From contig NW_027117344.1 in the NCBI RefSeq assembly GCF_038025025.1, forward strand, positions 1,922,001 to 1,986,000: 64,000 nucleotides of DNA, in the 5' to 3' direction. Shown in pieces: positions 21,064 through 46,099 of the stretch. Numbering within the stretch: position 1 is the first letter of the stretch; every line of letters starts with the position of its first letter. The DNA is from Phyllosticta citribraziliensis. Lineage: Eukaryota. Under the pieces are notes generated by a model. That model was not told the DNA's origin. It saw only the letters and a program-made list of their open reading frames with translations, and searched no databases. The translations under genes and the position numbers were made by a program.

Positions 21064-21652
21064 ATGGCATCAGCCTTTGTGGCCCCATACACACTCCCTG
21101 GCGGTGGAGGCGACCCGCCCCGTCGCCCAAACAACAACAACAACAACAGAAACGGCCACAGGGTCGAAAAACCAGGGTAAGTCTGCAGTCTTGAGGTCCG
21201 TGGAGGAAGTCAACATCGCTGAACCTCCAACCAGAACAAAACAAACATGCAATCGCTGTGGCCAAGCCATGCACGGCCACTGGAGAGAATGCACAAGAAG
21301 ATGTAGAAGATGCAAGACCAACGAACACGTTGGATTGCCGTGCTCGGTCAAATACCCAGCACCAACTCCCAAAAATACCGGGGCCGTGAACGAACAAGTC
21401 GTCAAACTCAGCACGGACTTATATCAAGAAACTCGCGACCTCAGGAAACAGCTTGAAGAAAGCAGAAACAGGGAATCCAACATGGGCCAACAGGCTGAAA
21501 AAATGCAAAGAGATTTCTCCGTTTTGCAACAAGACCACATCTTTTTGCGGCAACAATACAACGAAATGGCCCAGCGCTATCAACAACAAATCCAGGAGCT
21601 TCAAAGACAACTCCGAGAACGAAATCAAAAAGACGGCCACCAAAAAGGCTAG
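21064..21652 (+). CDS. G0: orphan double zinc-knuckle (Gag/LINE-ORF1-like) plus coiled-coil protein
   Basis: Exon 21064-21176 (MASAFVAPY...NNNNNN), phase-2 intron 21177-21234, then CNRCGQAMHGHWREC-x3-CRRCKTNEHVGLPC and a Q/E/R heptad-rich tail. Confidence 0.75.
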
Positions 21653-21992
21653 TCCAAACGTCAAATTTCAATTGGCACTCAACACCAGACCCTGCCGGTC
21701 AAAAAACAGGCCCAACACTCAAGACCAGGCCTTTTCACAAAACACCAGGCCCTGCCTCTCAAACACCTGACCAAATCATTCAAAATCATGCCTAGTTAAT
21801 CAACACCAGGCCTCGTCAAAAATCAACCTGGCCCCAACACTTAAAACCAGGCCTCAACAAAAAAGAAACATAAAACACAAGACTCTGTCGCTCAAACCAG
21901 GCCTCACATGAAACATCATGCCTCATCAACAAACACAAGGTCTGAACAATCAAAACCAGGCCTCTCAAACAGAATTCAAAATCTCAAGCTTC

Positions 21993-22350
21993 GTTCGCGG
22001 AATCAAGAAGAGCTCGGAGGTCTTGCGTCGCGGGAGCAAGAAGAGCGCGGCTCGCAAACAATCTCGGAGGTCGCTTCGCGGGAGCAAGAAGAGCGCGGCT
22101 CGCAAACAATCTCGGAGGCCGCTTCGCGGGAGCAAGAAGAGCGCGGCTCGCAAACAATCTCGGAGGCCGCTTCGCGGGAGCAAGAAGAGCGCGGCTCGCA
22201 AACAATCTAGGAGGCCGCTTCACGGAAGCAAGAAGAGCTCGGCTCGCAAACAATCTCGGTGTTCTTGCTTCGCGGAAGCAGGAAGAGCTCGGCTCGCAAA
22301 CAATCTCGGAGCCTTGCTTCGCGGAAGCAAGAAGAGCTAGGATCGCAAAC
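21993..22350. repeat. 48-bp tandem minisatellite (~7 copies)
   Basis: Unit gcttcgcgggagcaagaagagcgcggctcgcaaacaatctcggaggcc; central copies near-identical, outer copies degraded. Confidence 0.95.
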
Positions 22351-23000
22351 AACATCCCAAACATCCAAACAACACCACAAAACATTCAAAATCTGTCGAA
22401 CGGCGGTGGCGTGTGTGGGGAGGGTGGGAGGACAAGAATTGCGAAACAGGACTACGCCAACAATTTGCGAACAACAATGCCCTCGGGCAAAATTTCAGTC
22501 CAAATTCAACAAGAAGCGAGCTCCAGCAAACGTGCTCTCAAACAAAACGAAAGGACCGCGGAGGAAACAGAGTCTTCAATCAACGCAAGCAATGGGCAAC
22601 AGTCAAAATATGCGGGGGGGAAACAATTGCCGAGAAGGATGTTGCGGAAGGGGTAAAATGGGGCTAAGGCCTCTGAATATGAAGACAATTCAATCCAATG
22701 AAAATCCTCGTGCTACACGAATCATCGAGAAGCCAGCTGAAAGTGACCACTGACCATCATTCGTAGCAGAGGCATTCAATCTTGAGTTTTACTGGGCATG
22801 CGGTCATGTTCTCATTGAGCATCAAGATTCGGGAGCAGAAGGCGGTAAGCCATACATTCAGTCTTGCGAGATGATTATGATTGCATGTTTTTGAAGCTGC
22901 GTGGATATCGTTGTCGCTATTGCGTCTCCCTCCCCACTCCCTCCTCCCAACTCGTTGCGCCATTGCTCAGCGCTGCTGTACCCTCTTGCCGATGTTTGCT

Positions 23001-24546
23001 TCACTCAATTCTTTCCTCCTGTCTTTGCCTTCTTTGCCGCGTTTGGTTGTTGAGCTCCATGTCGCCGACCCAGTAGGGATTGCTGACGCGATAGGCGTCG
23101 AGTTGCCATTGCGGAATGTCGTGCTGGAAAGGACAATTTGCGACGCGGCATTCGAGTGGCCGGCAGTTGTACCAAAAGCAGCACAAGGGTATTCTTTTGT
23201 AATAACAATGTTTCCATGGGTTTGCAATTGTCGGGTCATGTATTCTTCGGGCCCCGCGTAGACCTTGCCGGTCAAGGACTTCCAAGATCTCGGGGAGACC
23301 TTGCGCTATGATCGTGGTGCCACCTGCAATGTCATATTTCAGTGATCGAGGACGTCGGGTTGCAAATCTAAGCGAGTTCGGGGTGAAAACATACTCAAAA
23401 GCCTCAATTGCGGTTGCGGCGATGTCCCAGGAGACGTTGGTTGCTGTTGAGCGTCTAGAGATGTCAAACTTTAGTACAGATCCTTAGAGAGCGAACTCAT
23501 GAAACTTCGCACCTTGAGTCTCTTGCGGCAGCTCAGGGACGGGCAGCAAAGTTGGAGCCGGATCTACGTTGCATGTAAGCATATTGATCATCAGGAAGTG
23601 CGTCGGGACAGATCAATTCCGTACATTGCGGCTGCTGGCCCCCAGGATTCTGCGGCTGAATATCTGGAAAATTTGGTTTCAGTCTACAGCAATCACAACG
23701 CAAGATTTGGTGTGTATGGATATTCGGGAATTGTGGAATCCTCAAAACGAGCGGAGCCGGTCTGTAAAGGAGGCTGTCTGGAGATAACATACCTTGTTGC
23801 GCAGCATATTGAGGCGTGGGTACTAGCACCAGAAGTCAGCTCACAAAGTTTCTGGCGAAGACGATCATGGAAAGACGTACGTGGAGGTGCGTATTGCGCT
23901 GGTGCTTCTTGCGCTGGTGGTGCTTCTTGCACTGGTGGTGCTTCTTGCGCTGGTGGTGCGTCTTGCACTGGTGGTGCGTATTGCACTGGCGGTGCGTATT
24001 GCACTGGGGGTGCGTATTGCACTGGTGGTGCGTATTGCGCTGGTGGTGCGTATTGCGCTGGTGGTGCGTATTGCGCTGGTGGTGCGTATTGCGCTGGTGC
24101 GTATTGCGCTGGTGCGTATTGCGCTGGCGCATATTGCGCTGGTGGATGTTGCGGAGTTCGCGCTGGGGCTATGGATATGAGTGGACGAGGTTGGAGGTAC
24201 AGCCTTGAAAGAAAACTTACTCGTTTGCTGCCATGTTTGCGAATGAGCTGGAGATCCCGGCGTCAGCTCACGAAGATATCAACAGGGCAAGTGCTTTGGA
24301 AATGTCTCACCGATTTGCGGAGGCTGCCATTGTTGCGGTGGGGCCCTGGAGGTAGCGATGTCCTCGTGGATTTGCTGATGGCGGACTTGCGGCAAGTATT
24401 CTTGCGGGTGATAGCCTTGCGGTAGTTGGTAATTTTGCGTTGGTTGGTAGTCTTGCTTCCGGTCAGTGAGATTCGAGGCAGACTCCCAACGGTGCGCGCT
24501 CACAGGCGTGGTGGCCGTTTGGCCAGGAAGATTGATTTTGTGACAT
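23001..24546 (-). CDS. G1: micro-exon gene, Q/Y/P-rich low-complexity domain plus CCCH zinc finger
   Basis: Exons 24546-24504, 24451-24311, 24247-24221, 24168-23881, 23822-23793, 23663-23625, 23563-23513, 23454-23395, 23323-23001. All 8 introns are GT-AG and phase 1; the frame stays open to DPTIANPW...CFWYNCRPLECRVANCPFQH. Confidence 0.8.
23885..24145 (-). repeat. 15/18-bp coding tandem repeat encoding (QYAP[P][AV])n in G1 exon 4
   Basis: Repeated gcgtattgcgctggt(ggt) on the + strand. Confidence 0.95.
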
Positions 24547-25664
24547 CTGTTCAGAATGATATCAATAATTGGTTGACGGCGAGGGCCTTCGGTGAGCTTT
24601 ACCGTTGTGGGCTGTCGCAAAAGTTTGGTGTAGAGGAGAAGATGGTGGGCGTGCGAGATGGGAAGATGTTGCTTCGCAAGAGGCCGCCGCGGTGCCGACG
24701 ATTTGGCTGGCGGCGCCTTCCACACTCACTCCACCTCAGCGAGAACTGGCACCCACCCACTTCGGGGTTCGGCCGCCGTGTAGGAGAAAGCGAACCGGAA
24801 AATTGGCCCTGTGCCTTTGGCATTCTCTCCGTCATCGCAGACCAAATCCCTTTGCATCAACTTGTGCGCTCCTACTCCTCCGGCTCAGATGCGCTCTCTA
24901 CGTCGTCTCTTGAACAGCTCAAATGCTTCGTGTCCAACTTCGACCAAATGGTACGAATGCTTCTGATCTCTGGCAAAATCCTCCATGGCGCATGCGGAAG
25001 TTGTGTTCATCGGTCCGGATAAAAGGCTCCACGCTGACCATGTGCTTCACAGCTAAGGCACGATTCATACTCCCCTCCAGTCCCCAAACCCCTCGCCGTC
25101 ACTTGGGACTTCATACTCCTCATTCCACGAAAACCAAGTAGCACCATGGGATACAACTAGCAAAATTCGGCTTGGACAAAGAAGAATGCCGGAGAGACCT
25201 TGACATAGGCGGGATTTCTGAGCCAGAAGGGTTACTTTTGCACCTGTGGTATGTCTCCTTTCTTGCAGTGGCCGACAGATATTTTGAAATTGCTGTGAAG
25301 CATCGGATGGACACATCAGACTCCGACGTATGGAACGCCAGAGACTACTTCGGAACCAGGTTCTGATTCGACCGAAAACAATGAACGGGTGTTCTAGAAG
25401 GTCATCGAGAATTTTCCGATTTGTCGAACCACCTGGTGATTGCCAGTATGCCATTTGACGAGGCACAGAGGGTATCAAACTGCAACAGCCGCCAAGATAC
25501 AGTAGAAGGTCAAGATGAAATCTTTCATCATCAGCGAGTACTTGCTATATCCATGGAAGCTGACAGAGTGACAATCAGCTTCACAACATGCTCGAGACAA
25601 ACGTCTGCCACATCCGTGAAGTAAACCAGGCCGGCTTTGTTGACATTCGCAATCGAAGCGAAGA

Positions 25665-25800: not shown

Positions 25801-26781
25801 GCGGGGTGGAGGAGGCGACCTGAGTGTGGGGAAGTTATGTCTGACGTCATATCATGCAGCCCCCGCCAGGAACACTTGGTCCGTCACCCACTTTCCGTAG
25901 TCAAACTCCTCTCGATCATTTCTTCATCCCCAGAGTCAGCAGTGGCGGTCTTGTTGATAAAGGCGTGTGTACTTACAGAATACCATAGAATGCGTATCTT
26001 ATCTTCCGCGAGATAGACGCTGTTCAATGTCCCAAATGCAGCAATCCACGCTGTTTGACCCACAGCCCCAAAGACCTGCATAGCCGAGGATCAAACATCG
26101 TGTACAAAAGCCAAGCATCTGCAATGATAGACACGGATATTGAAGTCGCCGTATCCGAGTCCCAATCTGCCTGGATCTCAGAACTTCTTCCGGTGAGGAT
26201 GCTTGAACTGCTGTCGACCCACATCGACTTGCCGAAAGTTGAACGGCCGTGTGTTGAATTCAAGATCCGGACCATGTTTCTGAGGCCCCTCATTGGACCA
26301 TCTTGGTTCCTAAACTGGTCCTCATCCGCTCCTTCTGCAAGCCGGCATCGACGTCGTATCTTTTGTGGAACGCCCCCAGGACTTGAAATCTGGAACTTGG
26401 TATCAAAGTTCTGGCGCACGCAAACAAAATGAAGACGTGAAATGATCAAGGAGCATTCAAGCGCTTGAGTGGTGGTGATTCAAGAGACAGAGACCGAGTG
26501 TTCTTTCTCGTCCAGAACTAGGACAGGAAGATTCAAACCGCCTGCCTAGTTGGGGATACTGCCTTTTGAGGTACCACGGCTTTTTGGACCAGACCTAGAT
26601 TCTTGGCCCGGATCTAGTTGATCAACAGTATGATGCACAATGCTTCCCAACCCCTCAGATGACGTGTTCCAGCTCGTGATTGATAATTGAACTCATGATT
26701 ATGGATAGCAGACTGCTGTGCCACTTAAACTGCGGAGCTAGCAACATCAGCAGTGTTCCCCGTCAACTCGCTCAGACAAAA

Positions 26782-28832
26782 ATGACTGACCACGACGCAA
26801 AAGAGGCGCTGAGAGACGACATTCGATGGGAAAACCCAATCCATCATGAGCGCCGTATCAGGGTCATTTGCATCGGCGCTGGAGCCTCTGGACTTCTCTT
26901 CGCCTACAAGCTCCAACGCTCTTTCCGCAACTTCTCCCTGACGGTCTACGACAAGAACCCAGACGTCTCTGGCACGTGGACTGAGAATCGCTATCCGGGC
27001 TGCGCGTGCGACATTCCCGCGCACAGTTACACTTACACCTTCTTCCCGAACCCCAATTACACGCACTCGTACTCCGGCTCGGAAGAGATTCGCAAATACT
27101 TTCAAAGATTTGCATCGACTCATGGGTTGGATCGCTACATCAAGACGGAGCATGAAGTCCAGGCGGCGACCTGGGACGATGCTCAGGGCAAGTGGGTCGT
27201 CAAGGTAAAGGACTCCAAGAGTGGGGAGGTGATTACGGACACTGGAGATTTTCTCATCAACGCCACTGGCTTCTTGAACAATTGGAAGTGGCCCGACGTA
27301 CCGGGTCTCGACAACTTCGAGGGAGATTTGGCCCACACAGCAGCCTGGCCTGAGGGTCTTGACCTCCACGGCAAACGCGTCGGACTCATTGGCAATGGGT
27401 GAGTTTCCCCTTATCTGGACTGCAACACCGTGGTCAGCGGACTCACAATCGAGAAAGATCCTCTGGCATCCAAGTCCTCCCAGCGATCCAGCCTGAGGTT
27501 CGCAGTCTGACTACCTTTATCCGCCACAACACCTGGATCACGAAGCCTTTTGGTAAGGATGGGCCGCGTGAATATACCGAAGACGAAATGGAGGAGTTCA
27601 AGGACCCGAATGTACTTCTTGGACATCGAAAGGAAGCCGAATCAGGCATGAACAGCATGTTCGGTAAGTCTCTCCTCCTGGTTTTGACGTCCGCTCGCAG
27701 TGAGTGTCCAATGGAAGTTCCCTGAGCGCAGTCGTCTTGGCGAATGACAGATTCAAGATTACACGCCTAGAATGTGACGTCCCTTGTCCCACTGTGGATT
27801 CAGGATGGGCTCCAAACCTAGCTCTTGTGGTCAACAACACTCGAACTCTGACTGACTAGTGTACCAGGAGTTTTCCTCAGAGACCACCCCGTCCAACAGG
27901 AAGCTCGCAAGATAATGGCCGAGGAGATGGAGGCCCGCCTGGACGGCGACAAAGCCCTCTCTACGCGCCTGATTCCCACCTGGAGCGTGGGCTGCCGGCG
28001 ATACACTCCAGGACCAGGTTATCTGGAAGCCCTGCGTGCTCCCAACGTCCACGTCGTGTACGGCGGCGTCACAGAAGTCCTGCCCAATGGGTGCAGGACA
28101 TCCACCGGCGAGACCGTCGAACTCGACACGCTCATCTGCGCCACGGGCTTTGACGTATCGCACCGCCCACGCTTCCCCCTGATCGGCCGCGGCGGTGTGA
28201 ACCTGCAAGACGCGTGGGCTGAGTCTCCGCGGAGCTACATGTCTCTTGGGGCCCCCGATATGCCGAACTACATCATGGTGATGGGGCCTAACTCACCGGC
28301 CGGCAACGGCCCCGTCCTGCTGGCCATCGAGGCGCAGGTCGCGTACGCCTTGCGCATGCTCGATCGCTTGCAGACGGAGAACATCCGCAGCTTTGTCCCC
28401 AAGGCCTCGGCGATTGAGGAATTCAACGAGTACGTAGACGCCTTCATGGAGAAGACTGTGTGGAAGGACGCGTGCAAGAGTTGGTATAAGAACGGCACGA
28501 CGGACGGACGCGTGACGGGGCTGTGGCCGGGCAGCGCGCTGCATTTCACCGAGGCGATACGCGAGCCGCGTTGGGACGATTGGGACGTGACGTACCAGGG
28601 CAATCGCTTCTCGTGGTTGGGTGACGGGTACAGCCAGACTGAGACGACGCCCGGAGCGGACCTGGCGTGGTATTTAAGCAACGAGGATCGGACTGAATGG
28701 GGGAGCAGGTGGAAGAGGAGGGAGGCGGAGATTTTGCCGACTGAGGAAACGGAGGAGGAAGACAAGTTTGTGCAAGGAAAGCTTGTTGATGACGGCGTCA
28801 GGAGAGATTCTGCTGCAGCAGTTGCTGCTTGA
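26782..28832 (+). CDS. Flavin-binding monooxygenase (Baeyer-Villiger type)
   Basis: IGAGASG, GTWxENRYPG, fingerprint FEGDLAHTAAWP, IGNGSSG, ICATGFD; introns near 27399 and at 27664-27867. Confidence 0.92.
27696..27796. mobile_element. Degenerate MITE remnant inside a monooxygenase intron
   Basis: Starts cgcagtgagtgtc and ends gtcccactgtg; the host intron is 204 nt against the usual ~55 nt. Confidence 0.45.
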
Positions 28833-29586
28833 GAGTAGGAGAGAAGCGCCAAATGTCTGTGCTGATGATTAAAAGAACTCATCCCACCTTCTGTGGCGTC
28901 AGTCAGCATAAAGCTCTGTCAGAAAGACCGCACTTGCCATATCCCAGAAGGATCATCATGACCACTCCATGCTTGTCTATCTTTTGTCTTTCCGCTTGCT
29001 AAGACACTTTCAATCCGCCGACTCGACTATTTATTCAATCAATAAGAAGTCAAAACGTTGCCACGCTCAATCCACGTCATCGTCCAGAGTACTGCGACCC
29101 TTTTCGATCTGGTGACCAGAGTCCGATCCGCCAGCACTGTCACTGACAGTGAATAAGGCCCTTGCTGGAAGGCTAGACGACACGCTCCCAATCGGCCCCC
29201 GGCTCCACTCTATCACATCTGCTTCTCCGTCCCTCGAATCCTGGATGCGATTAAGCCTGTCGAACTGATTGTTGTAATAGAGCAAAGAAAGCAAAATGGG
29301 CTGACCAAGAACAGCAGTAGAACAAACACCATTGCCAAAACCACCCGTGTCTTTCCCATAGTCATCACTTTCATTATCTCTCCCGATCCCGGTTGCAATC
29401 CCGTCCCCATTTGCCTTGGTCGCCGACGTCGTTGATGGGTATTCCGATGAAGAATCATGTTGATGTTTTGATGCGTCAAACCAGGGTATAGGTGAACGTG
29501 TTCCAGGGACAGCCGCAAAAGGAGCTTCGGTGGTGGTGGCAGTGGAGGTGATCTATTTCACAAAAGAAAATGCAAAGACGAGGGTC

Positions 29587-30970
29587 TCAGAGTTCTACAT
29601 CTTGGAAGGAACCCTGGCTGGGGCTAACATCACCATCTTTGTCCGGCTCGCCGGCCTCGAGGCGCTTGTCGGCTGCCGAATCAACCTCTTCTTCAGACTT
29701 CTTCGACTTGGAATCCGGGTCCTCTGATCCTTTCGCAGCTTCCTCCGCGCGCGGTGTGTCATCCGGATCGACTTGCTCGGTTTCCTTGGCTTCGTCTTTT
29801 GCGTCGTCTGCAGACGTTGTGGTTTCGGCGGCACTTTCGTCTTTCGGTGGTGGGGCTGGAGGTTCGCCTTCAGATGCCTCGGCAGCATCTTTCTCTGCCA
29901 CCGTGACCATGTCCGTAGCAGACGTGTTGCCATTTGGTGGTTCTTTCCGCACCTGTTCTGGGGTTGGAGGTGTGATGCCCAGCTGTGGGCTTGGCATCGG
30001 TGGACTCTTCTGATTTTGCTGTTGCATACTCTGGCTTCTTCCATGTGTTGCCTGGTTCTGCTGCTGCTGCTGCTGCTGTTGCTGACCCGCCGGCGGGCCA
30101 ATCTGCCTCAGACGCGGATCGGCATTGATGTAGTACTGCCTGACACCAACTATTCTGCCCTCGCGCTCACAAGCCTTGACCCAGTCAGGAACAACGACGG
30201 GAATGTTCATCTCCACGGCTTTTTCCCACAGAGGGCCGCGACCTTCTGTGCACACGAAATGTGTAGTGTCGATGCGAACTTGGTCAATCAGCTTGGCGCC
30301 TATGCCTGTGACGGTATTGACGAGGCTCTCCTTGAGCTGCGCGGGCATGAGGCCGGGTGTCACGGTGATGCCACCCAGCTCGGTCATCTTGTGCGTCCGG
30401 ACGACCAGCCTCTCGCTGCTGTAGGTCCCCGCGCTTGTCCTCAACACTAGGTGGAACTGGTATTCTGTGTCAAGCGCCAGGCCGGAAATTTTGGTGCAAT
30501 GTTGCTCGAGGGGTCTGGGAATGCTGCCGGCCTTGCTGCCATTGCGGTACAGAGAGAGGCTGCGCAGCTCGGCCGTCGCCAGCTCGATGGGGTCCCATTC
30601 AAGGACGACAGAGGTTTGGGTGGTGTTGCGACAGCGAAGGACGGGGGCCGAGGGGGAGCGCGTGCCAAAGGTTTGGTAGATTTTGGTCTGCAATTGTTGA
30701 AATGCCTGCTGGGCCGCGCTTTCGGTCTGGTGGTTGCGCGAGACTGTAATGTCGACGATGCTGCCAGAGGAGATGTCGGGGGGCAGGAGAATGGACGGGA
30801 ATTCAATCTGTCTTGGTGGTCAAAGGTGTGGATCTTCACAATTGCGGCGACGTAGCAAGGATGGAGCTCGGCGAGGGATTTGGAAAGCGAGAGCATACCA
30901 GACGCTTGTCTTCGGTGAGGAGGACGGCAACGCCGGCGTCGACTTTGCCGACGGTCAGGGAGACCAGCAT
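29587..30970 (-). CDS. CHS5: Chitin biosynthesis protein Chs5 (exomer subunit; FN3 + BRCT)
   Basis: MLVSLTVGKVDAGVAVLLTEDKRL/IEFPSILLP N-terminus, FN3 and BRCT (THFVCTEG...VVVPDW), acidic tail. Confidence 0.95.
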
Positions 30971-31382
30971 ATCGGCAGCGAGGAGGTCAAGGCGGTCTTT
31001 GTGGTGTTGTTGTGGAGATGTTGCGGAGTCGTCGCGGAAGACGGAGACGGTGACGAAGCAGGGTCGGGCTGGCTGGCCGATTCGCCGGCCTCCCTCCTTC
31101 GACCCACGACCTCACGTGCAAGTCGTATTCACTGCTGCTATCCCAAACGCGCATCGTTTCCGCCTGTATCGACGTGAAGTAAAAAGGACTCCAGCTTACT
31201 TCCCGCCTCATTGGGCGCACAATTGTATCATACACATGGCCATTCCAAGCTCCAGTTGACGCCGTTACAACAAATCGTCCCCCTCTACCGTACGTCATCC
31301 ACGTAGTTCGATGCAATGCTCTCATCTCGGAGAGGTATGCACGCGCAAACTAATTCTGTACATTCACGCCCTCCGCCCCCGC

Positions 31383-32186: not shown

Positions 32187-32739
32187 GGTTGCGGACGAAG
32201 AGTTCAAGACGAGTCGGTTGCTCAGGGCGTCGGGTACGGTAGGAAGAGGGCGCGGTGGGCAAAGTCGTCGACGGTGGTGGTGATGGTCGAGGTGGAGGTG
32301 ATGTTGCGGCAGCTCGAAGCTCGGGCGCCCAGAGGCCAGACCTGACGGGAGCCCCAGCCAGGTGCCCGAGCCCAGAGATGCGGCTGCCCATGCAACTAAC
32401 AACAACCACCACCACCCTTGCTGCCTCTCTTTCTTTTCTCCAACCCTTTTCTTCTCCCATTCTCCTCTCCCCACGCTATTCTTCGCGCGCGCTCTCCTTC
32501 GCCCCCGTTTCCGCCCGCCACACCCCGACCTCCGCAGGCGATTCGGCCTGCGTCTCGTGAGCGTCGTCGCGCATCATCATCATCCGCACCGTTTCACCTT
32601 GTCCCATCCTCGAGGCTTGCGCCCCTCGCTCCTTTTTGCGCCTCCTGCGGGCGCACCCGCTCTGGTATCTTCTTGTATGCGGCAGCATGTCTGTACTCTT
32701 CAGGTAGCATCTCGCCTTACCTGAGTAGCACCACAAGTC

Positions 32740-34670: not shown

Positions 34671-36711
34671 TACGCAAGCTTGCTTGCGCTTAATTTTCTT
34701 TGCATCAGCTCGGGAGCCTTGTGGAGACTTGGATGGAACCCAGATGGATTCTGGGTGCAACTATCCAGCAGTTTCACAGATTGGAAACATTATACCCCAT
34801 TCTTTGGTTACACTTCTGGCGCTTTGCAGAGCGTTTCTCCTTACGCTTCTGGATTCTCAAATCTGGAGTCAATCTTTTGGTCCGTTTCGTTTACCCCTTT
34901 CCATGATCATTTAAATGCTGTTTGGAGGATACGTCAGCCTCGACCAGCGCTTTCCCCGTGTGGAGTTTTGCATCTCGAAGCGGAAATGGCATAAAGAGCG
35001 GGAATCTAGGAGTTTCTGCCGTCTGTTCCTTGGGAGCATTCATTCATCTGCACACTACCGCAGTCCGCAATCTTGCTCAGTAAACTCGAGCCTTCGCTTT
35101 TGCGACTCTCAGAACCTCTGTATCTTTACTTTCTGGCACTCGGAGCTTTCCTTCTCTGTCGTTCGAAGAACGACGTTTTGCATTCTCTTTTGGATTGACG
35201 TTGGATTACAGTGTTCCCGTGTCACGACACAACGTTGAGTGAATGTTGTCAAGCCCCCCGGGTATAGGGATCATGCTTGCTCGAACAGAGCTAATGCAAA
35301 CAACACACGTCTTGGCACGACTCCGCCCTGCCACTCGACCGTTTCAAACAGTTTACCGCTTAGGGTGAAGCGGGAATGATTTTGAGAGGGCAAAGAATCC
35401 CGCTAACGGCACAAGTCGGTGTGCGACGGACGGCAACTGCGAGTATGCGCCATGCTCGGTGATCAACCCTATTCCGTGGTGGATGCACCCAATGCGTGAT
35501 AAAACTGACGTGGATGCAGATGCCTGTGCTTTAGTTGATGAAGTTTATACAGGCCGTTCGCTCTGGCACAACCGAGACGGAAGGCCTCATTTCCTCAACC
35601 ACAGATTGCCATGTCCAGAAGCTGAACGACTTCCGTTTTTGACTTGAAAGTCTCGCAAGAGATTCCCACGCCTTGGATCCCGCATCTTCGGCGCATTCGT
35701 GGCCGCGAACACTGGAGTTGTACCACAATACTGCCACCTCGAGCGTTCTCATCAAGTCTATCCCAGTCAGATGATGTAAGTTTATGTCCATGTTCCTGGT
35801 CGAAATGCAGACCGGCCTTGCCGTTGTTGACAAAACCGCAGGAAAGGCACAGTACAAGCAACCCAGTGCGATTGTTGAACGCGGGATTGGTTCAACAAAG
35901 ACGGATACCGCATGCACGGACGTTGCTTTTGGGCATCTGGACGGGTGGGACAAAAGAAATGTATCTCGGATCCTCGGGCCTTGTCGCTCTTGTAAACAGA
36001 GCCAAGTTGTTCAACAGGGACCAAGGATGGCTCAGCAACGCAAAAAGATTCGATGACGTACTGATACCCATCCCCGCCTCGCACCCGAGGAACTAGATGC
36101 CTGCCTGGATTGAAAGCACCTACACGTCTGGACCTCATTGACCCATGTTGTTCGCATCGGACGAGCCGTCGGCTTCCGCTGAAAGACAGACCCTATCCAG
36201 CAGACACGGCTACGGTCAGCGAGGCTTTGCGACAAGCTCCACCTGCGGCAGCAACGTCCAAGCCAACCGCATTGGCAGCACCAAGGCTCGAAAAGACGAG
36301 ATAAAGTATGAAAATCACGGCAATTAGGCACTGATCTACCGAGCTTGGCTTGCTTACCTTACCTCTCGATGTAGATTTGCTCTACTTGGCCTTGCGTCGG
36401 ACAGACTGATATTGCTCCATGGGGAAGGTATGACCCTGAACATGGTTTGCCAAGCGCGGTTGGCTGCGTGGTGGACATCTTAACCGCGCCACCTACCTTG
36501 TTTTATGGTTAAAATATTCCAGGGAAGCGCACAGGAAGAAGAGGTAGTGGCTGAGTTTGTGCGTCTGAGCTCGATGGTGACGGTAGTATTTGGAAGGAGC
36601 GTTCGTCGCTTTGGCCATGGCGAGTGCGGTGCGCTGGACATTGGATGCTCCCAAGGCCAGTCAAAACTAATCTCTTAATCCACATTCCATTGGCGCACGG
36701 GACCAACCATT

Positions 36712-39358
36712 ATGGCACTCTATTCGGCTCTTGCGCAAAGTGGAGTTCGGTCCAGAAGCACTGCGCGGAGGGGCGCCGCGGCTTTGCGGCTCATGATTGG
36801 ACTGAGCACTTTGCTCATGTTCGTTGGCTTTTTTCTCGGGTCGCCGCTACTTGGTAATTTCCTTCCCGAGAATTTGCGCTCAGACAAGAGATGTCAGCTA
36901 ATTGGAGAACCTCCAGGAGCCACAAGACAGCGTCAACAACCAATCGACCATGGCAACCAGCGCCTCGTCAAGCGTCAAAATGTTCCTTCACCCGAGGGAG
37001 ATATTTGCCAGACTCAGGAGTGCAAGGACTACTCGTCGTACATCAAGCGGTCCCTTGGCGTGAATTACACCCAGATCGATCCTTGCACGGACTTTTGGAA
37101 ATTTGCTGTGGGCAACTGGCAAAGCTTCAACGACTATCGACCAGACCAGTCTTGTGAGTATCTACAAAGGTGATAACAGCACGCAGGGAAGCTGACTGAG
37201 CCACCACAGCCGTCAACTCTTTCAGCGTGTTGGATGACAAAAATCGCGACCTGCTGCGAAAGGTCTTGGAGAGTCCATACAACGAAGCCACGATGATGAG
37301 CGACCAAGATCGCCCAATCGACCGCGACAACTTCAACAAGATGAAGACAGCGTACGACGCCTGTCTGAATGAGGACCTGCTCAAAGAAGTTGGCGTCAAG
37401 CCTGTGAAAGACATCCTCGACGCCGTCCCAAAGCCGGATTCCGGGAAATACGAAACTACTGGCGGGCTGACCGACATTCTCATCACGCTCCACCGATTGG
37501 GCGTCTACCCGCTCGTAGCGACGGATACGGGCTCAGACCGCAAGACACCTGACGTTGTGACCATCTACATAAACCACGGCGGCAAGGGATTGCCTTCGAA
37601 GGAGTACTACAACAAGACCGACGTGCAGGCCAACTACACTCGGACGATTGCCGAAATGTTTGACATCTTTCTCGGGGACAGCGGTACGCACGGGGAAACG
37701 TCAAAGCAGGTGTTTGAGTTGGAGCGCCGCATCGCACTCGCACAGTTGGACCCAGAACAGGAGAGAAATGTCGACTTGACGTACAACCCCTACAAGCTGG
37801 AAGACGTAGACAAGCTGGTCCCAGATATTTCCGTCACGCAACTGATCGACGCATTCACCCCGCCGGGATTCGACGCCGAAAACGTAGTGCTCCAGCCTGT
37901 AGAGTACTTCCGCCAGCTATCCCAACTCATAAAGAGCGTTCCGACCGAAGTTCTCTACGCATACTTCCAATGGACCATCATCAACGGATGGGCCGATTCG
38001 GTCTACCGCGACCTCCGAGCACCGTTGCGGCGATTCAGGAACCAGCTTGCCGGTAGACCTGACGATGCCATTCAAGACCGCTGGCGTACCTGTCAAGAAG
38101 AGGTAGATGAGAACATGCCGTGGATCCTGTCCGGCGCCTACGTCCAAGCCCGCGCCTTTGGTCAGGACTCCAAGACCTTGGGTGAGCAGATCATCGACGA
38201 TATTCGGCTCATATACGAAGAGAGGTTTCCAAATTACGACTGGATGGCGAAAGAGGTCCAAGAGAGGTCCAAGAACAAGGGTAAGCTAAGCAACTTTGGT
38301 ACCCTTGACACATTGGGAGTCGAGACAAATGAAGCCTCCTGGCAGTACAGGTGTGCTTAGAGAGCATTCATTCACTGCTACAGTTGCGCATCCATCCACT
38401 ACTGCCCCACGCTCAGGAATTAGTCCTGCCTTGCTGCAGCCAGACGCAGGGGGTCTCATTTTTTCGACACCCACCGTGGTGGTTGAGATGTTCAACAGGC
38501 GCTAACGGAAACACAGTTACCTTGATTGGCAAAAAGATCGGCTATCCAGACAAATCGCCCAACGTGCTCGACCCCGGCTCTGTGCAGGAATACTACGCCA
38601 ACCTCACCGTCAGCAGTACCAAGTACTTTGAGAACAAGCTGAACATCACGTTTTTCAGCGCTAACAAGAGCTGGGATGATTTGCTGCGGCCGACAGACAA
38701 AGACCGCTGGAGCGCAAGCGCAAACACCATCAACGCCTTTTATTTTCCCAACTACAACCAAATCGTCTTCCCGGCCGGTATAATGCAGACGCCCTTCTTC
38801 AACCGCGAGCTTCCCGAGTATGTTTCGTACGGAGGCTTCGGCATGCTGGCCGGGCACGAAATTACGCATGGGTTCGATGACCAAGGCTCCAAGTTCGACG
38901 AGCGCGGCAACTTTGCTACATGGTGGGACAAAGGGACGCGCGACAATTTCACGGAGCGCACCAAATGCTTCGTGCAACAATACGCCAAGTTCAGCATCCC
39001 AGGCCTCGATGACAAGCCGCTGCCCATCAATGGCGAGCTGACGCAGGGCGAGAACATTGCCGACGCTGGCGGCGTCTCGTCGAGCTACGAGGCCTGGCGA
39101 CGCAGAAACGAACGAAAGCGCAACCAGATGCTGCCGGATTTGCCGGCTGACGCAAACTTCACGCCCGAGAAGCTATTCTTCGTCAGCTTTGCCAATATTT
39201 GGGCGCAGAAGGCGAGGCAGCGGGCTCTGGTTCAGCAAGTGTTGAGCGACGTCCATACGCCCAATGAGCAGCGCGTCTTGGGGGTATTGGAAAATTCGAA
39301 GCCGTTCAAGGAGGCGTTCGGTTGCAAGGATACAAAGCCGGCTTGCGAGTTGTGGTAG
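36712..39358 (+). CDS. Peptidase M13 (neprilysin/endothelin-converting enzyme-like)
   Basis: N-terminal TM, DPCTDFW, INAFY, HEITH zinc motif, GENIAD, C-terminal CELW; introns near 37154 and at 38281-38516. Confidence 0.93.
38309..38478. mobile_element. Diverged full-length MITE copy inside the M13 peptidase intron
   Basis: Left cacattgggagtcgagacaaatg...cctcctggca...gagcattcattc; right ctcattttttcgacacccaccgtg; collinear with the 6224-6409 copy. Confidence 0.75.
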
Positions 39359-40071
39359 GGCGGTCGTTGGTGCTCTGATGGTCCTGTGCTCCGCTTACAC
39401 GGCCTGGCGTGTTGTCCCTATTATTGCTTAGCATCCGTGTATTCGATCACCTGTCAATACATGACTTTCTTCCAAGCGCGTCGTGAGCGACTTGTTAAGG
39501 GGCCCCGGAATTCGATTGTTTGCCTGCAGATTATCCACGGAAGATCTCTGTTTCTTTGCGGGTCGGGGAGCAAAGGCACTGGAAATGACGACATGGGGTG
39601 TCAGTGGCGCGACAAACGGAAGGCTTCGGTGGTGATTGCTCCCAAATACCTGACAAGTTCTCTAGTACAGCGGAGCCAGAGCACGGCTGGCGCGAATCTG
39701 TTGAAGAAAGCGGCTCTGTGGGCTGTTGCCCTCGCGGTCGTTTCGAAGAGGGCTTGAGAGACTGCCTGGGTGTCGGCATAGAGGTGCGGGTGATGGGTCG
39801 GCGCAGAGGCGCGCAAGCAAAATACGCACCCAGACTGATGCCGGCCTAGCCAGGCAGCAAAAATAGGCGACGGCAAAACGATATTGCTGGTGAGGCAGTT
39901 GGGAGAGAAAGGAAGGCGCGTCGGGGCCCGCGCACTCGCCGGTCTAGATATTCCCTCCTCCCACGAAGACCGTTTCTTTCTCTCCACCTATTATCCGACA
40001 ACGCGCACACGGTAAAGCTCACGCGAATCAATCTTGCTGCCGTGCCTGTACTGACTCCATTGCGTGAAAAG

Positions 40072-41225
40072 ATGTCCGACAATCGGTTCTCCTCCTCTCG
40101 GCCACCCGGCCACTACTGTGAGTGCCTGCGTTGGAGGCTTGTCTTGAACCCCAATGTACTAACTGGAACTCCAGACGACAACCGCGCAACGCAAGATCGC
40201 CGGTCTCCACGCCACAGATCGCAAAGTGAGTCTGACTCTTGAATGCTCCCACTTACGGTTCCGTTGACTGACAGCGCTGTCTTCAGGATCTCGGTCGCCC
40301 GCATCTCGCGAATCGCAATACACTTCGCAACGGCGAGGTAAAAGAAGCGCGAAGTGTTTCCCTCCCGAATTTCCGCTGACATCAAGCTCCAGAACGTTCG
40401 CCTCATTCTCGACGACAAAGGAGTAAGTCATAGATCAAGCCTTTGTCTCTGAATACGGGAACTGACCTGAATGCTCCAGCGCCTTCGCAACACGCGCACT
40501 CTTCGCGACGCACACACTCTTCGCAACGCGCGCGCTCTCCGCAACGCGCACACTCTTCGCAACTCGCACACTCTTCGCAACGTAAGTTTCCCATTTGAGT
40601 CATTCCGTCCAAGATAAGGTCATTGACATGTGCTGTAGAGTCTACAGCGGCGCAATTGACTGCAGCCAAAGCTGAAGTCAAGGACTTGAAAAGGGAGATA
40701 GAATTCCTGAAACTCCAACATCAAATGGAGGTGCAACAGCTGAAGCATGAAAAGGAAATGCTACAGCTGCAACATTATAAGGAAGCGCGAGAGCCGAAGC
40801 AAAAGCTCGAGCAATCCACGCGGCAGCGCACGCAGCCCCCGGAAAGACTCCTTGATTCCACCGCGCAACACCCGGTGCCCAAACGGGAAAGCCCGGAGCC
40901 CTCGCCGCAAAACTACCCGCTACCTCCGCAGCAAAAGTCTGCCTCCGAAAGACCGCGGGAAGCGCAAACAGCGGAAGAGAAGAAAGACCCGCGCATCGCA
41001 AACCCATGGGTGTACGATGAGCGGCACCATTCAATTATCAGATGTTGTTTCCACTACAACGTGTATGGCAACTGTCAGGTGCCGGGGAACTGTCATCTCC
41101 TGCACGCAATTCCTGAAAAAGAGTTGGAGCGATGTGAAAATCAGCAATGGGTGACGGAATACCGGGGCAAATATCGCATCCAGCGGGAATGGGGCCTGGC
41201 CAAAGGCAACCAGCGAAGGCAATGA
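40072..41225 (+). CDS. G2: micro-exon gene, RS/SP-rich domain plus coiled coil plus CCCH zinc finger
   Basis: Exons 40072-40117, 40175-40225, 40287-40337, 40393-40422, 40480-40581, 40639-41225; 5 of 5 introns phase 1. Encodes RRSPRHRSQRSRSPASRESQ and canonical C-x8-C-x5-C-x3-H (CFHYNVYGNCQVPGNCHLLH). Confidence 0.85.
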
Positions 41226-42219
41226 ATAGGGAGGGAGGGTCTTTAGGTCGATTGCCAGGGGAAGTTTGCAAGGAAACGATCGCAAAAGATCGCAATCAAC
41301 ACGTCGCAAACATTGCGCAATAATCTACGCCTTCTCTTGTCAATTGACACATATGTTCTGTGAAACTGCTTCTCCGCCGTAATTTTGAAGGTTATAAAAC
41401 ATAAAATAAGCCTCGAATGCTCCAAATGTACGCCCTCACGGGTATCCAAAGTTTCCCCAATGCTTCAAATCCGAGAGACTTGAATGTGGTCTGATAGTCA
41501 ACGTGTAGTCTCCTTGTACCTACAAGGCTCGCACACTGGAAGTCGACAGGTATGGCTACACTTGAGGGGAGACTTTCTGCAGTGAGTGGTCAAGGAGAGG
41601 ATGGAATTGTTCTGTGTGCAGCACAGCAGTCCCAAAGTCTACTGTGTGTGTTCGCGACAAGACGCGTAGAAAGAGGGAGAATCTCACACAGCCAAAAGGG
41701 CGCAGGTTTGCCTGTTTAAACAAAGGCTGGTGGGAACGTTTCAACGATAGGCTGACTTGGAGAAAGGGAACAAGACGAGGAACGAATGGAAGCTTGAGGC
41801 TCCACGCGGAAGTACACCAGGGACGTTCAAATGCGTTGTTTGTGAGAAGGCAGACAAGCAGCCTTCATCGGCGCCCCAGATCTTTCTACAAGTCGATGCC
41901 TTGTTGCGGCAATCCCTTGCAATGACTGTCGCTGAAACTATCTTGAATCTTTGGCTGATCACAAAGCAGACACAGCAAACAGGACCTTCACAAACGATGG
42001 AACTTCTTCGCCGTTGAATGCTGACCTTTTGCTGTCGCTGTAGCTTGCTTTTTCCCCGTTGCTCCCTGTCTTTCTATCTCTGCCTACTCCATTGTTCAAC
42101 TCTTGCCGTCTCCAACCGTATCACAAAGCTCCTCACTCTTCCCCGGATTCGACTGCTCCTGGTGCTCTTTTCTCCTTCATTGGAACCTTCCGCCCGTTCC
42201 TTCCCAAAACAATACCTCC

Positions 42220-44241
42220 TCAACGAGACTGGTCCGAACGATTCAGAACATCCAGTGCTTTTCCTACCACGTTCTCGAACTCGGACAATTGTCGATTTTT
42301 CGCGTCCCAAATCTCTCTCAAGTGCTCTTCATGCTCAACTCTTTCCTGCGCCAACACACATTCCGCTTCGAACAGAAGGTGCTCAGCATCGTCCCGCTGT
42401 TCGTTGGACCTCAGGAGGTCGGCTTCAGCTCGGTCGGCACGGTCTTGCTGTATCCTCAGCTGGGCACAGACATAGAGATAATCCTCCCTCTTGATGTGGT
42501 CTCCACCTGCTCCATTGTCGACGTCTTGAGCTTGGATGCCGTTGTCCTGGTTCTCGCCCGCATTACCCGCCCTTTGTTCTTGCGAACTAGGCCCCTGGAA
42601 CTCGGCCGCTCGGTCGCTAGGGAAGTATTCTGAAAGTTCCACTGTGCGCCGACCATACTCTGGCGAAGAGCTAGAACCCGCCCATCCGCGGCGGCCTGTG
42701 TGAATGTCGTAAAATTTGGCGGGAATCTTGGAGCAAGGGCGATGGAAATGCTCGCGTTTGTCGCACCACTGACAGGTATCTGAGCACTGTGTCCAGTGTC
42801 CGTGGATTTGTGATCCGCAACGGAGGCATATGCCTTTCCAGGTAAATCTGTCGAGAAAACAGTCAGTCCAGAAGACATTGAGATATTTCCGTCCTGGGAG
42901 TTACTCACGTTCCATCAAGGTCCGATTGGGAGATAACGCGGCCACCTTAAAGTTCTCAAGTGTCAGTAGAACCAATCGTCGAAACACATCCGTCCGGGAA
43001 CCTCAGGCGAAACACGTGCCTGGAGGATTTGTTTGCGGCTCCAAGGCCTGCTCCTGTTGTAGATCCTCTTGCTGCTGCCTCGGATCCACCACCACCAGCT
43101 GGCCGTCTTGAGATGTCGGTCTGGGAACGCTTCCCAAGAGCGTCTGAAACGACTGCGCGTTCGTCTGCTCATCCGTCTGCGCACCATTCTCTTGCGGCTC
43201 GTCGGGATTGGGTCAAGAAGCCGAAGCCGGGGCTACAAGGAAACATCAGCAGACTGGCCACGACGATGAGGATTAATATCAGCTTTGTACCTTGTCCTTT
43301 CTGGCCATGGGAATGCTGTGCCTGAAGGTCTACGCAATTTAGTGTCATTACGCAGTAATATCCGAGAAACCCTTTGCCCGTATCGGCTCTTTCGTATCGC
43401 AAAGGCCTCGCAAAAACGGGTATCGGAGGGTGACATACATTGAGGTGCGTAGTGTGGTGTTGTTGCTGGAGCACCATATCAGCTGTTGTATTTCCAAGGG
43501 AGGTATGATTGGACGACTTACAATGGGGCGGAAATTGGCATGACGCTGTCTCTGAAGCTGAATTGTCAGCCAACGAAGACTTGTTCGAGGGACTACGTAC
43601 GCTGCGGTGGTGCATGCTGAGGCGCATGATGAGGCGCATGCTGAGGTGCATACTGAGGTGCATACTGAGGCGCATACGGAGGCGCATACGGAGGCGCATA
43701 CTGAGGCGCATGCTCTGAAATACCAGATGTCAACCGAAAGGTTCTCCATAGGGACAAGATCGCGGAAGGGCATACGTGGTTGTGCAAACGGCTGCGTCAA
43801 CTGAGGAGTAAACTCTGGAGCATCGTGAGTCGAGACAACCCCAAAGACACATATTTGAGGGATAACCAACGCTGCTGCCACTGGGCCGGTGGTGGTGCTA
43901 GATTCCGGTGTCAGCATGTGGAGATTCCCAGGCAAATTCCACTGCCCTTTCGTTCCTTGCGGTTGCTGCTGCAGAGGCGGCGGCAGCGGCTGCGGGGGCG
44001 GCGCTGGAGACATAGGCGTCAACTCTCAAAGGCAGCGGGAGGATATTGAGACGCTCTGGGATTCCTTACCTTGCTGAGGGTAGCCTTGAGGCTGGTAGCC
44101 TTGAGGCTGGTAGCCTTGAGGCTGGTAGCCTTGCAGCTGCTGGTTGTCTTTTGTTGTTCAGTGAGATTCGAAGCAGAAATAGAGCAGTGTGCACTCACGG
44201 CCGTGTTGGCCATTGGGCCAGGAAGACTGATTCGGCCACAT
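42220..44241 (-). pseudogene. G3: micro-exon gene, Q/Y/P low-complexity domain plus double zinc knuckle plus coiled coil; two lesions (pseudogene or rescued by exon skipping)
   Basis: Exons 44241-44199, 44147-44070, 44003-43956, 43897-43871, 43814-43776, 43714-43601, 43557(or 43545)-43522, 43465-43439, 43329-43291, 43232-43020, 42945-42909, 42847-42220. Encodes CLRCGSQIHGHWTQC-x3-CQWCDKREHFHRPC. Lesions: GA donor at 43955 and in-frame TGA at 43215-43213. Confidence 0.7.
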
Positions 44242-44570
44242 GTCTTGACACAATGGAGTCAGTACAGAGCGGATGGGGCAGTTTTTTCTCGAGCTTACCG
44301 TTTAAATTTCGCTCTCGAAAGGTGTGTACGGTAGGGTAGCGGAGTGGTGCGCGCAGGCGAGGCGACCTGAATGGGCACCTTCCTCGCACCGCCTGCGGAC
44401 GCGGTGCCGGATTAATTCGCCCACTGGCTCCGGCTGCGTTGTCATTATTCGCGGCTCTTCCGCTCCAGATCCTCTTCCAAACACCAACACCACTGCGAGC
44501 GTTGACAAAAGTAATTGTCACCCGGGGCAGAACTCCACCGTTGATCTTGTGCTGATCCCTTCATGCGAAG

Positions 44571-46099
44571 ATGTCGAACGCTCCGAACCCTTACGCCTGG
44601 CCTCAGGGCCACCCAAACCGCCGTCAGTAAATCTTGCAGCGCGCTTGAGCCTCTCTGACAGAAACAGCTCCTCAAGAATACGGCTACGCGCCGCAACAAG
44701 GTGAGCTCGCGAGGGAATTGCTGCTTATGACTTCATCGACTAACAGCATCATCTCCAGGGCCGCCTCCGCCGGCTCCTCAACCACAATGTCGGTCACGTT
44801 TTTGTTGGCTTTTTGCGAACTTTTGGACTCACAATGCTCAATTCAGACAACGATTTTCAAAATTGGGCTCCACCCCGTAAGTTAACTTCCGAGTCTGGTC
44901 TGAGGTGGTCCTTGTCGACTAACAGAAGGGACTGTAGGACAATGGACACCAGGTCCACCTCAAAACTGGCAATACCACCAGCGTTGGTCATCTCTTGGGG
45001 GCCCAAGGTTTCTTCCAGCTAACACAAAAGAAGCCCAACAAAACTATCAAGGGTCTGCCCGTTCGTCGCTCCCCCAAGCCCTTTTCTGGCAAATTGATTC
45101 ACTGACACTGGATGCAAAGGACCTCAAGTAGGAGCGCCGCCTCCTTCAAATTACTGGTCACAAGGTATGGTGTTCCCAGACATTGTCAAAAAACTCTTTG
45201 GAGGTCGTTGAACATTTGAGAAGGGTACAACTATGGGCCAGAACCTCCACGTATGTCGTACCTTGGTGTCTTGTTTCCTATTTGAAGTCCTTTGCTGACA
45301 TGACGTCGTCCAGGGCTGGCCCCGCCTGAAAGTATGTTCAATTTTCATTGTTGCATCAATATTCTCGTAGTATACTGACAGGAATTAGATATCAACAACT
45401 CCTACGGGGTTGAAAATGAATGGCGGATGGCTCCTCCAGCGGCAGCAATATTGCCCGTAAATCGTAACTTGCTTATCAACTCCCGCTTTCTCACGATCCC
45501 GTCCGCTGATTGAGAACCCACAGAAAACAGTCAAGCAACTCATAACAATCAAGGTACTTACTCCTCAGATTCGTGCAGCCTTTTACTGATATTAGCTTGT
45601 GTAGATGATCGAACATGTAAGAAGTTGACTTTGAGAAGCATCTCCACGCCTCGTTACTGACCTAACATGTAGCTCGGACTACCGCCCCTCCGCCGGTTGC
45701 CCAAGAATCACCGGAAACAAAGGAGAGATATGGTAAGTTTACCGTGAGTCGCCCCTGGGTCTCCTAGGCCCGAGCTGACGTTGCACAACAGAACTCTATC
45801 GAGATTTATTCAAAATGGCAATCGAAATGATCGAAACCCTCCAAAGACAAAACAGCGAATGTCGACAAGAAAAGGAACAACTTCAACATAAATTAATTGA
45901 AGAGCGTAGACTCCATCGTCTAACGGAAGAAGCGAGTTTCGAAGCCATCAGAATTGCCACCAGAAACGCCACCAGTAACGCCACCAAATCCAAGAAGCAA
46001 TACCGCAATCTGCGAGAATTGTATTACAAGCCGTTTGAAATGCCCAACGAGTCACAAAATGATTCAAGGATTGGGCGGATCAGAAGCAAAACACTCTAA
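44571..46099 (+). CDS. G4: 14-exon micro-exon gene, P/Q/Y/G-rich low-complexity domain plus coiled coil (3' end uncertain)
   Basis: Exons 44571-44622, 44668-44700, 44747-44788, 44847-44876, 44938-44982, 45034-45060, 45120-45164, 45224-45250, 45314-45331, 45389-45463, 45524-45553, 45605-45616, 45673-45732, 45792-46099. All 13 introns are GT-AG and phase 1, with no in-frame stop. Confidence 0.8.

Follow-up and report, generated by a model that had tools for sequence, protein, structure and literature searches.

A 64-kilobase stretch of contig NW_027117344.1 of Phyllosticta citribraziliensis (Dothideomycetes, order Botryosphaeriales), a fungus of citrus leaves, hereafter the window, carries a cluster of five genes, G0 to G4. 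We consider them probable members of a family of disordered zinc-finger proteins that is restricted to the genus and arose through duplication, codon-period repeats, and exon shuffling. We propose that the five genes are mosaics assembled from three kinds of modules: a putative 5′ untranslated region (5′UTR) intron ending at the ATG, with a first exon of 14 to 17 codons that ends in phase 1; a predicted disordered, low-complexity part rich in Q/P/Y/A (G1, G3, and G4) or in R/S (G2); and a last exon that differs between members, encoding a candidate CCCH finger (G1 and G2), twin CCHC knuckles with a coiled coil (G0 and G3), or a coiled coil alone (G4). The second module would be encoded by short exons with lengths that are multiples of 3, separated by introns that are all in phase 1, and would also contain tandem repeats of 12, 15, or 18 nucleotides (nt). 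The data demonstrate the exon-intron structure of G2 and the 3′ half of G4, as well as paralogy among the modules, their restricted distribution, and the reading frame, while the spacing of the zinc-finger residues, the RS-like tract, and the coiled-coil-like stretches suggest that the products may be nucleic-acid-binding, self-associating scaffolds. In a fungus such a layout is unusual; in animals, architectures built by exon shuffling or from micro-exons are textbook material.

Support for the gene structures comes in part from contigs of three public runs (X1 and X2 from organism A, X3 from organism B), which contain 30 to 38% of the words sampled from positions 39900-46300. The contigs were mapped onto 26401-46400, with G0 and G1 lying outside that stretch, and the evidence consists of 15 of 53 joints and 24 of the 303 pieces listed. 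Contigs of X1 and X2 show near-zero mismatches and, at 10 sites within neighboring genes, leave out GT..AG or CT..AC introns; they behave as transcript assemblies, the RNA status of the runs being a guess that is not on record. X3 is DNA-like, with diverged sequence running contiguously across introns. The window has a G+C content of 50 to 58%, and its introns are short (~50 to 60 nt) with CTRAC-like branch sites.

G2 occupies 40012-41225 on the plus strand, with its coding sequence (CDS) at 40072-41225 preceded by a putative 5′UTR intron at 40012-40071. The six exons are separated by five introns, all in phase 1 (40118-40174, 40226-40286, 40338-40392, 40423-40479, and 40582-40638), and the model is letter-identical to the NCBI protein J3D65DRAFT_628469 (P0001). 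Three of the four internal exons (51, 51, 30, and 102 nt) are at or below 78 nt. The front of the product, 93 residues long, is 25% Ser and 23% Arg, and the last exon encodes a coiled-coil-like stretch and a CCCH finger; 40662-41329 is covered by an X2 contig without a joint.

G4 (44511-46171, plus strand) has its CDS at 44571-46099, a putative 5′UTR intron at 44511-44570, and a 3′UTR intron at 46118-46171, which lies 18 nt past the stop codon and is joined in an X1 contig. The model comprises 14 exons and 13 introns, all 13 in phase 1, at 16.4 introns per kilobase of CDS, and each of its 12 internal exons (33, 30, 30, 45, 30, 45, 27, 18, 75, 30, 12, and 60 nt) is a multiple of 3 between 12 and 75 nt long. 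Contig joints fit six of the introns (45251-45313, 45332-45388, 45464-45523, 45554-45604, 45617-45672, and 45733-45791), and all six are in phase 1 relative to the long open reading frame (ORF) of the last exon. The exons of 18, 75, 30, 12, and 60 nt are visible in the transcript-like contigs, the 18-nt exon as 17 letters between two joints and the 12-nt exon as 12 letters, in X1 and X2 both. To the left of joint 45251 stand 31 letters, equal to the 27-nt exon 45224-45250 plus 3+1 ambiguous letters; a candidate intron at 45165-45241 with a 9-nt exon was replaced by 45165-45223 followed by this 27-nt exon, which fits the 31-letter side. The depth method was checked on the same region, where an X1 bin depth of 792 at a contig depth of 2709 gives 195 nt, the sum of 31, 75, 30, and 59. 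The seven upstream introns are predicted from splice signals and an open frame. X1 and X2 cover none of bin 44410-45076, and depth arithmetic assigns nothing to 45077-45220; strings of exons no longer than 45 nt may escape mapping. The N-terminal part of the predicted product is P/Q/N/Y-rich, and the last exon is coiled-coil-like and encodes no zinc finger.

The initial annotation had placed four genes in this region (G1, 24546-23001; G2, 40072-41225; G3, 44241-42220; G4, 44571-46099), and we confirm all of these starts and stops. Its count of 36 phase-1 introns among 37 coding introns stands for the models of G2 (5/5), G1 (8/8), and G4 (13/13), whereas the junctions chosen for G3 are unconfirmed. 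Its description of short symmetric exons also agrees with our models, in which 29 of 30 internal exons are multiples of 3 and 26 of ~32 measure 12 to 78 nt. With only contig- or NCBI-backed junctions, the proportion is 15 of 16 (binomial P = 7.7e-7 if exons are independent, a value that overstates independence because paralogues inherit intron positions). Comparisons of phase and of family members were confined to the window. Nine contig-supported control introns from neighboring genes have phases 0, 0, 0, 0, 1, 1, 1, 2, and 2, so that 35 of 36 family introns and 3 of 9 controls are in phase 1 (Fisher P = 6.7e-5); two of the nine had two open phases that were settled by eye, one phase-0 call gives a poor-looking translation, and two further control introns were dropped for having no open frame. 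Family introns measure 43 to 172 nt (median, 58), at densities of 5.8 to 16.4 introns per kilobase of CDS. A search for introner-like elements, by all-against-all blastn of the 37 coding and 4 putative 5′UTR introns, gave only two matching pairs, at paralogous positions. Because intron similarity is restricted to those two positions, the family introns are neither introner-like copies nor recent duplications of a unit. We propose that the uniform phase both records and permits the duplication and recombination of exon units in frame.

Could the phase-1 pattern be an artifact of hand-picking splice sites in repetitive sequence that is open in several frames? The low-complexity parts do have alternative frames with only 0 to 5 stops, alternative paths of comparable score come out of a dynamic-programming model run without constraint, and the frame-keeping model of G3 required a weak acceptor to be forced. 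Against such an origin, G2 coincides with an independent NCBI model, six G4 introns and two micro-exons are present in contigs of two runs, and the exon-length rule, which does not depend on frame, is obeyed by 15 of the 16 supported exons. An artifact is highly improbable overall, and it is largely refuted for G2 and for the 3′ half of G4. The unconstrained dynamic-programming gene models were themselves rejected, being over-spliced and having frames without coding sense.

Paralogy of the front is evident upstream of and within the first exon. The homology of exon 1 noted initially for G1 to G3 holds, and it extends to G4 and to the putative 5′UTR intron. The window contains the pattern TGGCCNMANGGCCA three times, in exon 1 of G1, G3, and G4 and nowhere else. 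In an alignment of the regions upstream of G1 to G4 (A6), mean column identity is 68%, and the donor, a branch-like ACTGA, and the ATG are conserved. All four regions share a CGGTAAAGCTCAC-like donor, ACTGA ~15 nt before the ATG, and exon 1, and we read this common upstream region as a shared putative 5′UTR intron. G1 and G3 are collinear, exon by exon, and the finger-bearing tails of G1 and G2 are 41% identical over 68 amino acids. A donor-like motif near 47652 was considered as a sign of a further family member, and none was found on reading 46100-49000.

G1 (23001-24602, minus strand) was modeled from splice signals and its open frame, with CDS 24546-23001 and a putative 5′UTR intron at 24602-24547. 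The model has nine exons and eight introns, all eight in phase 1, and five of its seven internal exons (141, 27, 282, 30, 39, 51, and 60 nt) are at or below 78 nt. Once spliced, it has one stop-free frame, the other two carrying 2 and 1 stops. The N-terminal part is Q/P/A/Y-rich, and a CCCH finger is encoded in the C-terminal exon. Exon 4 contains a tandem repeat at 23882-24145 on the minus strand (18 nt × 15.3 by Tandem Repeats Finder), which encodes a P-A/V-Q-Y-A-P peptide repeat.

The same QYAP repeat uses different synonymous codons in G1 and G3. Within the repeat exons, Q is encoded by CAA in 16 of 16 cases in G1 and by CAG in 6 of 6 in G3, Y by TAC (10/11) and TAT (5/5), and P by CCA (25/29) and CCT (8/12), respectively. 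Because the peptide is the same and the codons are not, conservation acts on the peptide, which indicates that Q/Y/A/P is the selected reading frame. Repeat expansion, another element of the initial annotation, is seen as 12-, 15-, and 18-nt tandem repeats within the low-complexity exons, and 30 letters are gapped in an X3 contig that spans 43653-44234, which would agree with repeat number differing from one organism to another.

The fifth member, G0 (21064-21652, plus strand), is absent from the initial annotation. It was found by tblastn with the last exon of G3, which matches 21239-21361 with 49% identity over 41 amino acids at an expectation value (E) of 9.5e-5. A single phase-2 intron (21177-21234) sits four codons ahead of the first Cys, and the predicted product ends in a coiled-coil-like tail that comes after twin CCHC knuckles. 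The interval separating the G0 stop from the 3′ end of G1 contains a 48-nt unit repeated 7.0 times at 22013-22352 (91% match), for which neither an ORF nor a function is evident; many short repeats of the "CAGGCC" type occur in the flanking sequence at 21650-22000.

Interchangeable zinc fingers had been proposed. Exchange of C-terminal modules is borne out by the CCCH tails of G1 and G2, the twin CCHC tails of G0 and G3, and the tail of G4, which has a coiled coil and no finger. CCCH fingers follow the spacing Cys-x(4-15)-Cys-x(4-6)-Cys-x3-His. In alignment A5, C24/C25, C35, C40, and H44 are invariant in G1, G2, and the P. capitalensis proteins described below, giving C-x9/10-C-x4/5-C-x3-H with aromatic residues after the first Cys. 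This Cys/His spacing is that of the CPSF30/Yth1-type CCCH fingers, from which the cluster finger differs in being single and in having a conserved DP-x-I/L-x-N-x-W lead-in and a basic tail. A Pfam search at E ≤ 1 returned nothing for the G1 tail, zf-CCCH included, and only noise for the G2 tail, P0001, and P0004; UniRef labels P0001 and P0004 "C3H1-type domain," a name of the source's own. Zinc knuckles follow C-x2-C-x4-H-x4-C, and the second knuckle of G3, G0, and the distant protein P0005 has exactly this spacing, the first unit being C-x2-C-x4-H-x5-C. No match to PF00098 at E ≤ 1 was obtained for the knuckle exons in the Pfam search. Lin28 and the retroviral Gag nucleocapsid likewise have two adjacent Cys-Cys-His-Cys units; the cluster differs from them by the x5 before the last Cys of the first unit, an invariant H-G-x-W, and a coiled coil after the knuckles. 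The best look-alikes in the ESM Atlas are zf-CCCH (0.88) and zf-CCHC (0.86) clusters, and those of the knuckles that carry PF00098 score 0.81 to 0.86; all of these scores are below 0.9 and serve as leads only.

Searches of protein databases used the G1, G2, and G3 tail sequences and comprised word-indexed searches and one exhaustive HMMER search. They returned Phyllosticta proteins and one distant protein, P0005, in line with the lineage restriction proposed initially. Among proteins of 105 to 335 residues the G2 tail matched only P0001 itself, and among those of 365 to 2000 residues the G3 last exon matched only P0002 (NCBI BC567DRAFT_250049), which comes from another strain. The exhaustive HMMER search with the G3 last exon, over 1.84 billion representatives, returned P0002 and P0005 (E 1.7e-4), the latter combining twin knuckles with a P-rich part and a coiled coil of some length. 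A profile of the G1 and G2 tails, searched against proteins of 187 to 2000 residues, matched P0001 and two P. capitalensis proteins with Q/P-rich fronts, P0003 and P0004, whose fingers are 53 and 52% identical, respectively, to that of G1 over 92 amino acids. The family is thus uncharacterized, as the initial annotation supposed, with no Pfam family at threshold and relatives confined to Phyllosticta plus P0005. It is hidden only in part: NCBI already lists G2, as well as the G1 relatives from P. capitalensis, as hypothetical proteins, while G3 is annotated in a wrong-looking frame and G1 was not found among proteins of 187 to 2000 residues.

G3 (42220-44298, minus strand) is the least secure of the gene models. 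Its ATG is at 44241, its stop at 42220, and its putative 5′UTR intron at 44298-44244. Behind the G1-like, Q/P/Y-rich front come an adaptor exon of 37 nt (42945-42909), a last intron in phase 2 (42908-42848) lying six codons ahead of the first Cys, and a G0-like exon encoding twin knuckles and a coiled coil. The knuckles of G0 and G3 are each preceded by a phase-2 intron. Because the two genes share both the knuckle and this intron, G3 looks like a chimera of a G1-type front and a G0-type knuckle exon, joined via the 37-nt exon that takes phase 1 to phase 2. We suggest that it records one shuffling event, with the 37-nt exon as the phase adaptor.

P0002, the only longer relative of the G3 last exon, implies introns on G3 at 44198-44148, 44069-43715, 43600-43552, 43521-43466, 43438-43330, 43290-43233, 43019-42946 (GC..AG), and 42908-42848. 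When an mRNA with the mapped G3 introns is translated in the +1 frame, it gives exactly residues 1 to 212 of P0002. An extra intron inside the last exon then makes the protein jump to the true frame and removes the zinc knuckles; this intron is unsupported, since record 8 of X2 is contiguous over 42019-42847. P0002 is an annotation artifact in which G3 is read in a wrong-looking frame, the likely cause being a single TGA in the true frame. Record 8 (depth 31.2) is 1071 letters long, equal to 22 of adapter, 829, 37, 159, and 24 of adapter, and the bin depths predicted from it (18.24, 24.89, and 4.82) agree with those observed (18.3, 24.9, and 4.82, the 24.9 corresponding to 532 nt). Because both length and bin depths match, an exon edge is placed at 43020, and the edges of P0002 together with record 8 point to a 74-nt GC..AG intron at 42946-43019 on the minus strand, inferred rather than among the joints listed. 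In X1, at depth 112.2, bin 43076-43742 holds 367 nt, which fits acceptors 43233 and 43552 and does not fit the 331 nt of the frame-keeping model.

With the P0002 junctions, the Q/P/Y frame and the knuckle frame of G3 are one and the same, and the sole stop in its 403 codons is a TGA followed by C (43213-43215, minus strand, with acceptor 43233), at codon 116; the remaining 286 codons downstream are open. The TGA is bypassed only via a weak in-frame acceptor at 43191, 42 nt downstream of 43233. The exons backed by P0002 or contigs measure 78, 114, 30, 27, 39, and 213 nt, each divisible by 3, with the 37-nt exon in addition. Introns 43942-43898 and 43870-43815 cannot both be in phase 1, because the exon between 44003 and 43943 is 61 nt long, and an intact G3 with 10 or 11 phase-1 introns was not confirmed; the model that keeps the frame requires the weak acceptor 43191. 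The part at 43776-44003 on the minus strand may be one unspliced exon of 228 nt, three frame-breaking exons of 61, 27, and 39 nt, the same with the 61-nt exon skipped, or a region skipped altogether as in P0002, and depth arithmetic in bin 43743-44409 is compatible with several of these models. G3 may be decaying, or it may depend on a minor acceptor or on read-through of the stop. A 32-nt Pro/Gln low-complexity run of G3 at 43971-44002 recurs inside other X1 and X2 contigs, with loose ends of 255 letters on both sides. Because its share of the X2 depth (4.88 × 667/32 = 101.7) equals the depth of the contig of the gene at 33155-35061, this neighboring gene may carry the same 32-mer.

The state of G3 raises the alternative that these are young, fast-decaying orphan genes, transcribed, low in complexity, duplicated not long ago, and chimeric, under little or no selection, with at least G3 a transcribed pseudogene. 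In its favor, the in-frame TGA is present in the sequence of two strains when the best-supported junctions are used, one exon region breaks the frame, no Pfam family is matched, and beyond the genus there is the single weak relative at E 1.7e-4. We regard this as unlikely. The peptide repeat of G1 and G3 has been kept through synonymous codon replacement, and the finger is 52 to 53% identical between P. citribraziliensis and P. capitalensis, with every Cys and His retained. In addition, the 8, 5, and 13 introns of G1, G2, and G4 leave a stop-free frame, and even G3 has only one stop per 403 codons.

The initial annotation favored another use of the symmetric exons, namely, that the micro-exons are employed combinatorially, through skipping or a change of acceptor, so that RNA-binding proteins which form condensates would vary in their low-complexity domain. 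The cluster would then be a fungal counterpart of the micro-exon genes (MEGs) of Schistosoma. All internal exons but one can be removed without a frameshift, and several tandem acceptors lie a multiple of 3 nt apart (40638/40647, 43558/43552/43546, 43233/43191, 44928/44937, and 24169/24163). P0002 skips 44069-43715 in frame and the X1 depth in that bin (~355 nt once the foreign 32-nt match is subtracted) needs more exon, a hint that several forms may exist. The G4 contig of high abundance begins at 45221, the very position at which spliced upstream sequence would part from unspliced. Against this, no junction with two isoforms is present among the joints listed (15 of 53), rare variants being lost in contigs. 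Filamentous fungi mainly show intron retention, not exon skipping, which also counts against the idea. A signal peptide is lacking as well, and condensates and RNA binding are conjecture, as are the roles in sexual development, non-self recognition, or meiotic drive raised in the initial annotation. On balance, combinatorial use of the exons is doubtful. Improbable to a slightly greater degree is a fungal micro-exon system in which the choice of in-frame exons and acceptors would tune the disordered domain of zinc-finger ribonucleoprotein (RNP) proteins in both length and valency, and in which the G3 acceptors 43233/43191 or UGA-C read-through would switch between a tail-less and a full-length, knuckle-bearing protein. 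If the cluster arose by exon duplication and shuffling as we propose, its uniform phase need not serve the production of splice variants.

In two papers (PMC10526429, PMC10399815), schistosome MEGs are described as having a CDS made mostly of very short symmetric exons and as being lineage restricted, fast evolving, and largely disordered, and the cluster shares these traits, resembling them in exon size, in symmetry, and in having a CDS mostly of short symmetric exons. MEG introns are given there as long, up to 5 kilobases, and the products as secreted (excerpt of PMC10526429), whereas the introns of the cluster have a median of 58 nt and its tails are zinc fingers or coiled coils; the gap between ~58-nt and kilobase introns is a further point against combinatorial use. 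The exon-1 peptides, inspected by eye for a signal peptide, are polar with no hydrophobic stretch, in contrast to a MEG-type leader. A parallel in principle is given by human disordered proteins, which, according to Schad, Kalmar and Tompa 2013 (PMC3632108), are encoded by phase-symmetric exons, often with internal tandem duplication and module exchange. The cluster matches this principle, the human case being a genome-wide statistic and the present one a single compact cluster of a filamentous ascomycete. Titles and the opening lines of abstracts in the literature on micro-exon or symmetric-exon genes and exon shuffling in fungi mention no such family.

The FET proteins (FUS/EWS/TAF15) and SR-like proteins may be similar to the cluster in joining a low-complexity Q/Y or R/S region to a zinc-finger-type nucleic-acid-binding module. 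The cluster differs in having neither RRM nor RGG and in a proline content of 17 to 23%, and no sequence similarity to them appeared in the searches made. G2, despite its R/S-rich N-terminal part, contains no RRM or other Pfam domain and is not placed among the SR proteins. Yeast-type prion-like domains are high in Q/N with few prolines and charges, and a high proline content argues against amyloid; the low-complexity parts of G1, G3, and G4, for which the initial annotation had suggested a prion-like character, contain 13 to 23% Q and 17 to 23% P.

Several observations weigh against a family of zinc-finger proteins shaped by exon shuffling. Transcript support is not visible for G0, G1, or the first half of G4 (5′ side), the putative 5′UTR intron of G2 is unspliced in the X1 contig 38516-40081, and no intact G3 protein results from the best-supported junctions. 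Phase uniformity could stem from a few ancestral events copied by paralogy, and an open frame is weak evidence in the low-complexity parts, because their alternative frames have so few stops. No module reaches the threshold of any Pfam family. In profile searches against PDB, the best match of the CCCH tail is a CPSF30 finger (E 0.12, not significant), aligned finger to finger, and that of the knuckles to a zinc-knuckle protein is Lin28 (E 0.62, not significant), the only such protein among weak matches; AlphaFold models the CCCH tail poorly, with a predicted local distance difference test score (pLDDT) of 62.

Two features of neighboring genes were seen in passing. A minus-strand gene at 31070-32400, with one 50-nt intron (31534-31583), has an X1 contig depth of 10,833 to 23,969, compared with ~900 in its neighbors. 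A plus-strand gene contains an unusually long intron of 236 nt (38281-38516), in which many X3 contigs break, with loose ends at 38310-38431. Because so many contigs break there, the intron suggests a polymorphic or repetitive insert in organism B.

For public annotation, the cluster is a warning: one member is correct, one is read in a wrong-looking frame with its knuckles spliced out, and one was not found in the searched lengths. Until its expression, isoforms, and phenotype are known, its broader significance is limited. As a compact, transcribed fungal cluster in which one front is joined to three different tails and a phase-adapting exon is still visible, it would offer a natural and tractable case in which to see how module exchange builds disordered proteins.

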